Origin: a bacterium
Lineage (GTDB): Bacteria > UBA8248
Length of the DNA stretch: 64,000 nt
Direction: 5' to 3'
NCBI GenBank assembly: GCA_965213685.1
Contig: CBDBZY010000064.1
Span: 32,001 to 96,000, forward strand
Both the position numbers and the translations under genes were made by a program. Below, one piece after another: positions 23,605-26,080 of the stretch. Position 1 is the first letter of the stretch. Each line of letters opens with the position of its first letter. A model generated the notes under the pieces. It did not search any database. It saw only the letters and a program-made list of their open reading frames with translations, and was not told the DNA's origin.

Positions 23605-24862
23605 ACAAGTAAGAAAAACATTTTTCAAAAATGTAGAGGGATGTAGGGATGGCAGTGCCAAAAACCACACAAACTAGATATATGGATGGCAGTGTGCAGA
23701 GGACTACACAAGTAACCCCATCCCTACAGCTTTTTTTCATCTTTGTTTTCTGCACAAAGATGTTTCCAGTAATCTCACAGCAAAGTTTAGATACACATTC
23801 TATTCAAAAAAAGATGTAGGGATGGGGTCGGGGTTACTTGTGTAGTCCTCTGCACACTGCCATCCATATATCTAGTTTGTGTGGTTTTTGGCACTGCCAT
23901 TCCTACATCCCTCTACATTTTTGGAAAATGTTTTTCTTACTTGTTTGCATGCATTTTTTTCTGTACTACAGTACCATACAGGAGGTTGTCCTTCTCTAAG
24001 TTAAGTACCAACACCTTCCTCCGCGCACGGAAAAATACGGCTGGCTTGCAAGGCTAAGTATGTTTCTTGGGATCATACTCGGAAGTGAAGCTCAGTGATG
24101 CAACTTTGATTCTTGGGGGCGCCGTATCGTTTAGTAGAGAGATGCATAACGCCGCTTAGCGCTCAAAGGGGCTTGAAAAGCCTAACACGAGCGTCCGCTA
24201 GTTATAAAGAACATTTTTTGTATGTACACGCGAAATTGGTACGTCGCTGCCATTCCTACACGAACAGTTTACCGACTCTGAAACAAGAGTGAACACAGGC
24301 CACTCGGCCGCTAGGCTTTGCATTACTAGGGCGTGGCTTCGTGTGATTGCACGCGGCGCGCGAGGCCAGGCCTCACGTGCTTGCAATCTGTGTCACATGA
24401 CAATTATTAGAAAATGGCTTCCAAATATGGGCATGTTGTCCAGTGCGTCTAGTTTCTGCTTATTTGAGAAGATGCTAAGATGCGATTAAGGTAGATCATA
24501 CGCGGTAGTGATTACAGTTGATCTGTAAAGAACTACGGTGATTACTTCTGCCAGTTTCGAGAAAGGTCGTTTGAAAGAAATCTCTTAAGAAGAAGAAGAA
24601 GAAGAAGAAGAAGAAGAAGAAGAAGAAAAAGAATCAGAAAGAAAAAGAAATCACCACTTCGCCCGTTTCCTGGCAGTAAGTCTAGGGATGCTTTTTAGCT
24701 ATCTGGGGGTATCATTGGGTAGAGAAACGTCGGAATAGGATAGCTAGGTGTCCAGAAAGGCTTAGAACACGAGCGTTCGCGAGTTAAGACGGCTTTCCAA
24801 TGTACGCACACTATGGGTGGACCGGCGCCATCCCTACATAGAGAGTCTACCGACTCTCTGAT
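23605..24862 (+). mobile_element. Hairpin-ended HINE/Helentron-like element, copy B
   Basis: Long IR 23605-23944, (GAA)n tract, 3' GCCATCCCTACAT plus stem-loop; close relative of 60476-61737. Confidence 0.9.
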
Positions 24863-24887
24863 TAGCTATGTGTATATACATATATGT

Positions 24888-26080
24888 ACAAGTATGGAAA
24901 ACATTTTCCAAAAATGTAGAGGGATGTAGGGATGGCAGTGCCGAAAACGGCGGAAACTAGGTGTAGAGATGGCAGTGTACAGGAAAGACAGGTTATAAAA
25001 AGACTACACAAGCAACCCCATCCCTACATCTTTCTTTTTACTTGAAATTGTTCTGTGAGTTTAGCTATGAAAATTCTGGGAACATCAATGCCATGTGGTG
25101 AGAAAAAGAAAGATGTAGGGATGGGGTTGCTTGTGTAGTCTTTTTATAACCTGTCTTTCCTGTACACTGCCATCTCTACACCTAGTTTCTGCCGTTTTGG
25201 CACTGCCATCCCTACATCCCTCTACATTTTTGGAAAATGTTTTTCATACTTGTTTGTGTACTTTTTCTTGTATAATAGTACACAAAATATTATTGCAAGT
25301 TTCATCCAACAAACATATAGGTGATCAGAGCAGCCATTGCTACTAGTCAGCGGCGGAGATACGGGTGGGCCTTAAACCTCATGATCAGTCACTTACGAAG
25401 TTGGGAGGCTGAGCCCCTCTAAAAAGTCCTGAGCTAGAGTAGTTTCCTCAGTGTATCTGACTAGCTAACTCATACCAGTTACATTGAAGTTCGTTGTACA
25501 ATTGTACGGCGAAGTAAGAACGCGCTGTTTTCAGTGACAAAAGATCGAGTAGCCTTTGCTATGTCAAGCCATCGAGAAATTAATAGGCGTGGCTTCGCGA
25601 GGCCCCCCTCACATGCTTACAATTTGCGCCACGTGACAATAATTATTAGAAAATGGCTTCCAAATATGGCAAAGTTGTCTGGGGCTCTAGATTCTGCCCA
25701 TAGTAGAGAAGATACTAACATTTTGTTAGCGCAGATCATACTTCGTAGTGATTACAGTGGATCTGTGAAAGAACTATGGTGATTACTTCAGCCAGTTTTG
25801 AGTAAAGTCGTTTGAAAGATATCTCGTAAGAAGAAGAAGAAGAAGAAGAATAAGAAAGAAAAACAAAATTACCTTTCGTCCATTATCTGGCAGTAAGTCA
25901 AGGAATGCATTCTAACTACTTGTGGGGTATCGTTGGGTAGAGAATCGGTTGAATAGGCCATTCGCGTGCCGAGAAAGGCTTAAAACGCGAGTGTTCGAGA
26001 GCTAAGAAGGCTTTCCAATGTACGCGCACTATGGGAGTGTCGGCGCCATCCCTACATAGAGAGTCTGCCGACTCTCTGAT
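24888..26080 (+). mobile_element. Hairpin-ended HINE/Helentron-like element, copy C
   Basis: Long IR 24888-25253, (GAA)n tract, 3' subTIR plus stem-loop; close relative of 62877-64000. Confidence 0.9.

Follow-up and report, generated by a model that had tools for sequence, protein, structure and literature searches.

Rare loop inversions, rather than viral-type flip/flop, probably account for opposite hairpin loops in two adjacent Helitron2-like elements with long 5' palindromes

The DNA analyzed here (the window, 64,000 nt) is sponge-type eukaryotic sequence within a mixed bacterial assembly, and it carries two neighboring repeats, elements B and C, together with further copies of the same family (Table 1). 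As a reading made from the sequence alone (the sequence-only reading) had stated, B and C are adjacent and both point rightward; they are separate insertions 27 bp apart, each with a (GAA)n microsatellite. Element B consists of a 5' palindrome, a short unit closing with an internal 3'-end-like signal and a second unit, which bears (GAA)n and the true 3' end; this internal signal identifies B as a two-unit composite, and B-lineage rows contain two 3'-end motifs per copy. Relatives of B elsewhere share 89-92% identity with it. Element C is simpler (5' palindrome, body, (GAA)n, 3' end) and belongs to a subfamily of 17 copies with body identity of at least 87%. The left arm of B contains the motif TGTAG(G/A)GATGG, the 5' asymmetric inverted repeat, in two direct copies and one inverted copy. 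A repeat finder delimited 120-nt inverted arms in B (23605-23724 / 23825-23944; 97% complementary), 96-nt inner arms in C (24944-25039 / 25103-25198; 99% complementary) and outer 59-nt arms in C (24888-24946 / 25195-25253). Folded as single-stranded DNA, the hairpins of B and C reached -158 kcal/mol (z -33) and -187 kcal/mol (z -34), respectively, and 0/100 shuffles folded as well in either case.

Table 1. Positions of the B/C-family features in the window
Feature	Position	Strand	Remarks
Single-arm hairpin remnant	10194-10379	.	
C3-clade copy	19686-20864	-	flip state; hairpin 20509-20864
Element B	23605-24860	+	composite non-autonomous, B lineage; ends set by paralogous empty site
B left arm	23605-23737	+	5' terminus ACAAGT; small palindrome
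B loop	23738-23805	+	conserved core ~23760-23786; flop state
B right arm	23806-23944	+	left-arm complement; 6-nt bulge private to element B
B internal 3'-end-like signal	24250-24280	+	CCATTCCTACA motif and degenerate stem-loop
(GAA)n microsatellite of B	24588-24650	+	
B 3' end	24828-24860	+	3' inverted repeat CCATCCCTACA at 24828-24838, stem-loop, final G
Host spacer between B and C	24861-24887	.	27 nt; uninterrupted in paralogous empty site
Element C	24888-26078	+	C-young subfamily; ends set by two paralogous empty sites
C left arm	24888-25039	+	
C loop	25040-25102	+	flip state; conserved core on opposite strand ~25062-25089
C right arm	25103-25253	+	
(GAA)n microsatellite of C	25828-25850	+	
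C 3' end	26046-26078	+	CCATCCCTACA, 8-bp stem-loop, final G
Family copy, left arm short by 34 nt	29253-29835	+	flip; one of four segmental duplicates
Element E, B-young subfamily	60476-61737	-	92% identical to B; flop
Element F, C-young subfamily	62877-64000	+	89% identical to C; flip; extends past window end

The assembly yielded 80 full hairpins of the B/C family, 66 of which were classifiable for loop orientation, with loops delimited by motif anchoring; the contigs bearing the sampled hairpins total ~3.7 Mb and are dominated by one contig. An exact-pattern scan with a 29-nt arm motif gave 0 hits in public metagenome contigs and 0 in one-genome-per-species contigs. Part of the stretch was present in 20 rows of public runs, 6 of them sponge metagenomes by label, and none of the rows listed was an RNA run. 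Contigs from four of these runs measured ~100-560 nt among the pieces listed and cannot span an arm, so that neither loop orientation nor empty sites are readable from them; depths summed over these contigs do not represent copy numbers.

The element termini read 5'-ACAAGT...GACTCTCTG-3'. Paralogous empty sites (one for B, two for C) lack any target-site duplication: in the empty paralog GAATTAT/ATTAGC...ATGT/ATACATG, B lies at the first slash and C at the second, with 0 duplicated bases, which places the insertion between T and AT or, given a one-base ambiguity, between TA and T. The 3' flank begins with A in 36/38 copies and has T as its second base in 38/38, and the terminal base of the 5' flank is T in 32/50. 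Two asymmetric inverted repeats of 11 nt each were found, TGTAGGGATGG in the left arm and CCATCCCTACA ahead of the 3' stem-loop; in the consensus arms of the subfamilies, the former begins 37 nt in from the 5' terminus, and it is included in the 5' terminal hairpin, in which the entire left arm pairs with the right arm. The 3' stem-loop (8-bp stem, 4-nt loop; AGAGAGTC-TACC-GACTCTCT at 24840-24859 in B) begins 1 nt after the repeat and stops 1 nt before the terminus, and the common 3' end of B and C that had been recognized earlier, CCATCCCTACA followed by an 8-bp stem-loop, was recovered in both. Family matches flank 58 of the 80 full hairpins on one side only (at least 11 on one side, at most 3 on the other). 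Nine of the 80, mostly diverged, are solo-type hairpins with family sequence on neither side, and the assembly yielded no clean empty site for these nine.

Subterminal inverted repeats, a microsatellite, a 3' stem-loop and the absence of a target-site duplication bear out the Helentron-like (HINE) identity first proposed from the sequence, and these features are consistent with B and C being non-autonomous Helitron-like elements of the Helitron2/Helentron (HLE2) group whose 5' hairpin has grown to a near-perfect palindrome of 340-370 bp, the size found across the family. In the available parts of the published descriptions, Helitron2 elements are already defined in part by a 5' terminal hairpin (PMC3627910), and HINEs are defined by short (8-15 bp) asymmetric terminal or subterminal inverted repeats (PMC3627910, PMC4067079). 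As far as those parts go, Helitron2/HLE2 HINEs and DINE-1 elements resemble B and C: they insert without a target-site duplication, form tandem or composite copies and have short asymmetric or subterminal repeats, a 5' hairpin involving the 5' repeat, a 3' repeat directly upstream of the 3' stem-loop, a microsatellite in the center and compensatory changes preserving hairpins (PMC3627910, PMC4067079, PMC11417382). Against the same descriptions, the B/C 5' stem of ~130-150 bp is about tenfold longer than the stems of roughly 10-20 bp given there, the 5' repeat is set 37 nt in from the terminus instead of 0-4 nt, insertion is at T/AT (or TA/T) rather than between two T residues, transmitted variants are all mirrored between the arms, indels included, and both loop orientations occur. 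What is unusual relative to known Helitron2 elements is how large the 5' hairpin is, together with the loop inversions and the strict concerted evolution of the arms, and in the literature searched, mostly outside subscription journals and Repbase, no Helitron, Helentron or Helitron2 element was described as having a long 5' palindrome that inverts.

A decayed gene set adjoining a family hairpin encodes DUF6570, Helitron_like_N (Rep), PIF1 and OTU domains, matching the DUF6570 marker, Rep, PIF1 helicase and OTU of Helitron2/HLE2 partner genes as far as the sources at hand describe them (PMC3627910, PMC4067079, PMC11417382). It lies 1.9 kb from the hairpin, the left arm of which is truncated, and is antisense on the strand where that hairpin would be 5'; no 3' end was found there, nor any left-arm-like 5' end upstream of the gene at that locus. 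The assembly holds this Rep/helicase locus and one further fragment of 79 residues, which is surrounded by a patchwork of family pieces. In distinction from the partner genes described, no endonuclease domain was detected by Pfam in the 10 ORFs scanned at this single broken copy, and the decayed locus falls outside Helentrons in the strict sense. An HLE2-type Rep/helicase/OTU gene does lie beside a family hairpin, as a candidate remnant of an autonomous Rep/Hel partner, the ends of which could not be fixed by the searches at that locus.

DDE-type MITEs and foldback elements were considered as an identity for the hairpin and rejected, given the lack of a target duplication at the B and C sites and the one-sided family sequence around 58/80 hairpins. 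Foldback elements and the long-TIR MITEs of DDE transposons are short and consist almost entirely of a long inverted repeat that encloses a small spacer, whereas the B/C palindrome makes up no more than the 5' end of a larger unit with a Helitron-type 3' signal, inserts without a target-site duplication and adjoins a Rep/helicase gene rather than a DDE transposase gene.

The B and C loops proved homologous in opposite sense, as had been claimed: both loop strings originally quoted are present, 20/27 of their positions match by hand count, and a 26-nt core is shared only when one loop is inverted. Consensus loops of the B-young and C-young subfamilies scored 22 when inverted (1/1000 shuffles as high) and 15 when direct (p 0.14), and the C3 and B-young consensus loops also matched inverted (score 21, p 0.002). 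The consensus of a flipped-loop C subgroup matched B-young directly (score 27; 0/1000 shuffles), whereas the older B2 and C-young consensus loops gave no signal in either sense (13 and 13, p 0.35). The assignment of the window copies to two classes, B and E in one loop state and the other four in the opposite state, agrees with the earlier one.

Across the 66 classifiable copies, orientation counts in the three homology groups were 36 vs 7, 18 vs 0 and 4 vs 1. Orientation was uniform in the B lineage (18/18) and nearly uniform in the C lineages (36/43), with 29/29 C-group copies outside C-young and the flipped set sharing one orientation and 15/17 doing so in C-young. A body tree of 42 C-superfamily rows required 4 orientation changes (1/500 label shuffles as low), as did a tree of the shared 3' module (41 rows; 0/500 shuffles as low), in which C3 formed a clade of 11 flip copies, B a clade of 14 flop copies and C-young a clade of 12 flip and 2 flop copies. 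Segmental duplication of one locus accounts for four of the seven flipped C copies. Copy C64_543204 has a loop 96-97% identical to C-young loops in reverse sense, and its flip is evidently clean and recent. In C64_1582288, the body is nested in C-young and the arms are perfect, with a flipped loop at most 83% identical to any sampled loop, so that a hairpin exchange between lineages would fit better than a simple in-place inversion. The flip of C64_1593231 had weak scores (loop, 34-40 bits; flank, 91-104 bits). About 5-6 orientation changes account for all 66 copies, and all except the B/C split are limited to single loci. The copies compared showed loop orientation relative to the body to be inherited through transposition and clade-specific.

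The arms evolved in concert. The consensus arms of C-young, B-young and B2 show 100% complementarity and those of C3 97.9%, whereas arms diverge by 9-22% between subfamilies. Every fixed arm difference between subfamilies is mirrored in the opposite arm in each of the comparisons (27/27, 19/19 and 12/12), including 17-nt and 8-nt indels. Arm variants shared within subfamilies comprised 12 mirrored events, 6 one-armed events with two carriers each and 6 parallel hits. Private variants were one-armed in 155 events and mirrored in 37, although, because the sample is small (~3.7 Mb), variants scored as private may be common to unsampled copies; the 37 private mirrored changes could also mean frequent in-place correction. 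Segmental duplicates served as a control: one group has 15 arm asymmetries in common among 117 positions, and the other has a 34-nt truncation and a 6-nt deletion in common. At the sequence level, these comparisons demonstrated that the arms remain exact complements in transposing lineages and decay independently after insertion and under segmental duplication. Mirrored fixed differences together with independent decay outside transposition suggest that arm-to-arm copying is tied to transposition, and such strict concert is consistent with the hairpin truly forming in the life cycle of the element.

We consider it likely that B and C are independent HLE2 insertions in which arm correction takes place in the folded palindrome and loop inversions are rare by-products rather than steps of a parvovirus-like transfer. 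The palindrome would fold back in a single-stranded transposition intermediate or at the active donor, and one arm would be corrected or copied from the other in this folded state, keeping the stem perfect. Loop inversions would arise occasionally from the same intra-palindrome template switching or from arm-to-arm exchange, and would not represent a regular hairpin-transfer step of the parvovirus type. Template-switch mutations in hairpins and quasi-palindromes were reportedly described by Loytynoja and Goldman in 2017. In the part of a later study that was accessible, replication template switching fixes stems, yields multi-base compensatory changes, with one event able to create several at once, and inverts hairpin loops (Monttinen & Loytynoja 2022, PMC8794818); the restored perfect pairing and the inverted loop on a retained stem resemble the B/C family. 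The cases seen there (PMC8794818) are mostly short stems of RNA genes, in contrast to the ~140-bp stem of the B/C family, in which, moreover, homogenization occurs in transposing lineages and not in chromosomally duplicated copies. The perfect arm palindromes of active lineages hide the end-points of any inversion, and for this reason template switching, arm recombination and Rep-mediated inversion look alike in the sequence.

Of these, an occasional Rep-mediated inversion or hairpin transfer would have an HUH nuclease nick both symmetric sites and rejoin the 366-bp segment inverted, as a rare step resembling terminal resolution. The symmetry of the palindrome gives the 5' nick-site sequence a second occurrence, on the bottom strand where hairpin and body meet; the outer arm (ACAAGT...) is identical on both strands, and the outer right arm is laid out like a 3' end, with CCATCCCTACAT, a 7-8-bp stem-loop and a short tail. 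One orientation state has multiplied in the B lineage and the other in the C lineages, which indicates that an inverted hairpin remains functional. However, the flips besides the B/C split are single-locus, with none at a second independent insertion site in the sample. They also occur mostly in older or disrupted copies, which chromosomal accidents would fit equally well, and 5-6 events in 66 copies are so rare that no enzyme need be invoked; we regard such an inversion as unlikely. We likewise attach little probability to a reading in which the palindrome is rebuilt at each transposition by arm-from-arm copying in folded single-stranded DNA and Rep cuts the mirror site at the hairpin/body junction, giving occasional hairpin transfer. 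If this is true, the family would be a chromosomal rolling-circle transposon whose terminal hairpin corrects itself and can be resolved, and it would link Helitron-type transposition mechanistically to rolling-hairpin replication.

It also seems improbable that the hairpin forms a module that can be exchanged or moves on its own (a mini-element or MITE) and is joined to bodies either way round or swapped by recombination. Hairpins are indeed joined to differing downstream sequences (B unit 1, the C body, the group-3 body and the C18 subfamily), a divergent hairpin loop accompanies the C-young body in C64_1582288, the hairpin beside the Rep gene stops exactly at a homology boundary with paralogous sequence, followed by AT, and 9/80 hairpins lack family flanks on both sides. 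However, B and C have the hairpin/body junction and ~24 nt beyond it in common (88%), and the first ~70 nt of the body are common to many B-lineage copies, which indicates that the junction predates the orientation difference. The empty sites of B and C carry no target-site duplication, and the loop of C64_543204 is the exact reverse complement of its own subfamily's loop, both of which speak against the module reading.

The sequence-only reading had taken the two loop states as a sign of parvovirus-like rolling-hairpin replication, in which a hairpin-ended intermediate would randomize loop orientation at every replication or transposition. Parvoviruses and AAV are HUH nuclease replicons with a long terminal palindrome, short motifs repeated in the stem and both loop orientations, and each round of hairpin transfer inverts the terminus, leaving flip and flop approximately equimolar. 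The B/C family shares the long terminal palindrome, the repeated short stem motifs and the two loop orientations, which occur in one genome and even in adjacent copies, and perfect arm complementarity would be expected if one arm templates the other. Yet the element is integrated and has one palindrome rather than two terminal ones, and its orientation is inherited, with ~5-6 changes in 66 copies; given this inheritance and the few changes, a parvovirus-like 50:50 flip/flop per replication is not supported. Transposing lineages are uniform (18/18 in B, 29/29 in C outside C-young and the flipped set, 11/11 in C3) or nearly so (15/17 in C-young), the clustering on the trees (4 changes) was reached by label shuffles never or almost never, and no homology group approaches an equal split (18 vs 0; 36 vs 7, with 4/7 from one duplicated locus; 4 vs 1). 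Within the window itself, orientation falls on one ancient branch, with B and E in the B clade and the other four copies in C clades, the pattern that the sequence-only reading had itself set against its proposal. Regular flip/flop is consequently highly improbable. An assembly artefact, in which short reads blind to loop orientation in a perfect palindrome left the assembler to choose arbitrarily, is scarcely credible: the 120-150-nt arms do exceed common k-mer sizes and the public short-read contigs of the B/C repeat are only ~100-560 nt among the pieces listed, but arbitrary choice predicts ~50:50 within clades instead of the clade-specific orientation observed, and a 1.6-Mb contig running through many repeats argues for long reads.

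The opposite loops of B and C are thus probably a rare accident of a long palindrome that has flipped only a few times, and not a virus-like flip/flop. Helitron-type elements are thought to move via a single-stranded intermediate, direct genomic traces of which are, to our knowledge, scarce. The contrast between transmitted variants, which are mirrored, and the asymmetries kept in chromosomal duplicates points, at the level of sequence, to folding of the 5' end on itself in the course of transposition or as a consequence of it. When the loop of a long palindrome inverts, the outcome can mimic viral flip/flop with no replicative hairpin transfer involved, and the two are separable only by a tree of many copies. 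For annotation, our findings indicate that HLE2 5' hairpins can span several hundred bases, and search tools tuned to short terminal repeats would probably miss or mislabel such elements.

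Comparison of paralogous sulfatase-repeat spacers resolved the ends of B and C, two adjacent rightward transposon copies that each consist of a 5' palindrome (left arm, loop, right arm), a body, a (GAA)n tract and a 3' stem-loop. A spacer carrying neither element reads GAATTAT|ATTAGC...ATGT|ATACATG, with B inserted at the first bar and C at the second, and a second spacer has B and lacks C. These empty sites therefore set the limits of both copies and of the 27 nt of host sequence separating them (see table), and measured against the empty spacer neither insertion duplicated any bases. 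The element termini are 5'-ACAAGT and GACTCTCTG-3'; the first two bases of the 3' flank are A in 36/38 copies and T in 38/38, and the last base of the 5' flank is T in 32/50. TGTAGGGATGG occurs in the left arm, 37 nt from the element end, and its complement, CCATCCCTACA, lies directly upstream of the 8-bp 3' stem-loop. B is a composite element with an extra internal 3'-end-like signal (24250-24280), and at least two such signals were present in 14 of the 18 B-lineage copies. The sulfatase repeat unit that provided the empty sites occurs about ten times on contig C64, which holds the window, at 92-96% identity. An inverted repeat downstream of C (26169-26340; 44-nt arms, 84% complementary, 84 nt apart) is part of this host unit, because the paralogous spacers have it too.

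Coordinates of the elements and other features (window positions unless a contig is named)
Feature	Coordinates	Strand	Remarks
B	23605-24860		Ends from paralogous empty site
C	24888-26078		Ends from paralogous empty sites
Loop core, B	23760-23786
Loop core, C	25062-25089
Hairpin remnant	10194-10379		One arm or partial palindrome
Tandem paralogous sulfatase ORFs	8639-10084; 21051-22889; 26662-28509	(-)	Pfam Sulfatase + SGSH_C
RVT_1 ORFs	12070-13212; 36743-37483; 48819-49724; 52662-54552		Domain scan
Rep/helicase locus	C64:108199-114491		DUF6570, Helitron_like_N, PIF1, OTU domains; several broken frames
C18 hairpin subfamily	G000:C18 618-986, 183063-183432, 332382-332748, 381599-381970, 749838-750204

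The hairpins of both copies are real. The repeat finder returned arms of 120 nt with 97% complementarity in B, and inner and outer arms of 96 nt (99%) and 59 nt (97%) in C, and the predicted single-stranded DNA folds reached -158 kcal/mol (z -33 against shuffles) and -187 kcal/mol (z -34), respectively. BLAST located 142 hairpin loci in the assembly, 80 of them full-size (290-450 nt); 60 of these adjoin a body start that can be recognised as B or C. In 58/80 full hairpins, family matches numbered at least 11 on one flank and no more than 3 on the opposite flank, so the hairpin moves as the 5' part of a longer unit. The other 62 loci were shorter than 290 nt, and the many loci with one arm or a partial palindrome suggest frequent hairpin collapse by deletion. 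In a subfamily on contig C18 the loop is B-like and the outer arms have decayed; both flanks are conserved among all five copies, so these hairpins probably sit within a larger repeat or duplicated segment.

Both loop strings quoted in the sequence-only reading are present in the window, and its claim that the B and C loops are homologous in opposite sense, modest in similarity when taken alone, was borne out by family consensus loops. Comparison of B-young with C-young, subfamilies of the two lineages, gave scores of 22 inverted (p 0.001) and 15 direct (p 0.14); B-young scored 27 direct with a flipped C subgroup (p below 0.001) and 21 inverted with C3, another C subfamily (p 0.002). The older B2 consensus loop gave no signal with C-young in either sense. 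A core of about 20-26 nt, resembling CCAGTAATCTCA, was found in the loops of every hairpin group in one sense or the other. This core is kept across loop families that have otherwise diverged, and either orientation to the body apparently works.

A parvovirus-like flip/flop, as had been proposed for this family, was not supported. Loops were delimited in 69 hairpins, 66 of which fell into three groups joined by loop and flank homology, and the loop states (flip, as in C, and flop, as in B) split 36 versus 7, 18 versus 0 and 4 versus 1 in these groups, the commoner state of each group given first. For the bodies, a tree of 42 C-superfamily rows needed four state changes. A tree of the 3' module common to B and C (41 rows; 19 dropped for having no 3' end by pattern) also needed four, one due to a long-branch B copy, and its supported clades were C3 (11 flip), B (14 flop) and C-young (12 flip, 2 flop). 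Duplicated segments of 3.7-7.5 kb contain four of the seven flipped C copies, which thus represent one locus. The flips counted were the deep B/C split, this duplicated locus, C64_543204, C64_1582288, C64_518458 (in the third homology group) and the weakly supported C64_1593231; among them, the B/C split alone is shared by numerous independent insertions. The loop of C64_543204 is 96-97% identical to that of its own subfamily in reverse sense. Its body carries a 732-nt insertion from another repeat family (G000:C64:542241-543080; 98% identical to C64:887258-887990). This orientation pattern is the opposite of equilibrium flip/flop, and loop orientation in the six window copies maps to a single ancient branch, an outcome that the sequence-only reading had itself set against its proposal.

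The arms of the palindrome evolve in concert. Consensus arms are exact complements in C-young, B-young and B2 and 97.9% complementary in C3, and arms diverge by 9-22% among subfamilies. Fixed arm differences, including a 17-nt and an 8-nt indel, were mirrored in both arms in 27/27, 19/19 and 12/12 comparisons; those with C3 gave three one-arm differences, at the extreme terminus. As we read it, mirrored indels cannot be products of independent compensatory mutation, which means that copying from one arm to the other must take place. Variants shared within subfamilies, in the arms proper, comprised 12 mirrored events, 6 one-armed events with only two carriers each and 6 parallel hits in different arms, and private variants comprised 155 one-armed events versus 37 mirrored. 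Segmental duplicates departed from this pattern: one group had 15 arm asymmetries in common among 117 positions, and the other shared a truncation of 34 nt and a deletion of 6 nt. By rough arithmetic, private changes per site in C-young were about 0.008 (one-arm) and 0.004 (mirrored), a sum close to the mean terminal body branch (about 0.0145). In our reading of these sequences, arm-to-arm copying would go with transposition or donor activity and not with ordinary chromosomal replication.

In published accounts, Helitron2/Helentron elements carry short asymmetric inverted repeats and two hairpins, a 5' one that involves the 5' repeat and a 3' one that follows the 3' repeat; their non-autonomous forms contain microsatellites, they insert at T|T, and DUF6570 marks the group (PMC3627910, PMC4067079, PMC11417382). 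The family shows most of these features; the departures are its target site, how far the 5' repeat lies from the end and, above all, the size of its hairpin. The earlier assignment to HUH/Helitron elements is supported at the HLE2 level, but not for Helentrons in the strict sense. The search for an autonomous Rep/Hel partner yielded one decayed HLE2-type gene set, single-copy in the assembly, with a family hairpin about 1.9 kb downstream. The left arm of this hairpin is truncated, and homology to paralogous host sequence begins right at the hairpin's outer end. The hairpin is followed by a 54-nt pre-microsatellite body piece in the right order and sense; a search in the sense of the hairpin found no 3' end. 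The gene is antisense on the strand where the hairpin is 5', and some Helitron2 elements are reported to carry their gene in reverse (PMC3627910). The link between gene and family is suggestive only. A different short palindromic MITE-like repeat (L013 2930-3340; e.g., window 31253-31472) has about 30-40 copies at 97-98% identity over several contigs, one adjoining the Rep/helicase locus.

The assembly (7.97 Mb, 71 contigs) is a mixture of bacterial-looking contigs, many with 63-69% G+C, and eukaryote-like contigs with 43-53%, including the 1.6-Mb C64. The 64-kb window, bases 32001-96000 of C64, has only 21 ORFs of at least 150 aa, and the ten largest, scanned with Pfam, include five with reverse-transcriptase domains and three paralogous sulfatases; the RVT_1 ORFs are probably non-LTR retrotransposon fragments. 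Among public runs with this stretch, six rows carry the label sponge metagenome. On these grounds we regard the window as host DNA of sponge type that was binned together with a bacterium, which explains a Helitron-like repeat in a "prokaryotic" genome. Several large 43-53% G+C contigs are sparsely coding and rich in transposons, and they contain LINE-like reverse transcriptases.

Beyond the observed element ends, lack of duplication, inherited orientation and mirrored variants, we infer a mechanism in which the 5' palindrome would snap into a 140-bp stem in a single-stranded intermediate, as expected for a Rep/helicase-driven element. Stem mismatches and loops would then be repaired, or one arm re-synthesised from the other, resetting the palindrome and leaving loop orientation untouched. 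Template switching inside the long palindrome would account both for loop inversions, which are rare, and for loci reduced to a single arm, which are common; its documented outcomes include inverted loops and multi-base stem repair (PMC8794818). Hairpin exchange between lineages is hinted at as an alternative account by C64_1582288, whose arms are perfect with five mirrored changes private to it and whose loop shares no more than 83% identity with any sampled loop, and an occasional Rep cut at a mirror-image site may be another. The family is of interest for its hypertrophied, self-homogenising 5' hairpin, in which loop inversion is occasional and heritable.
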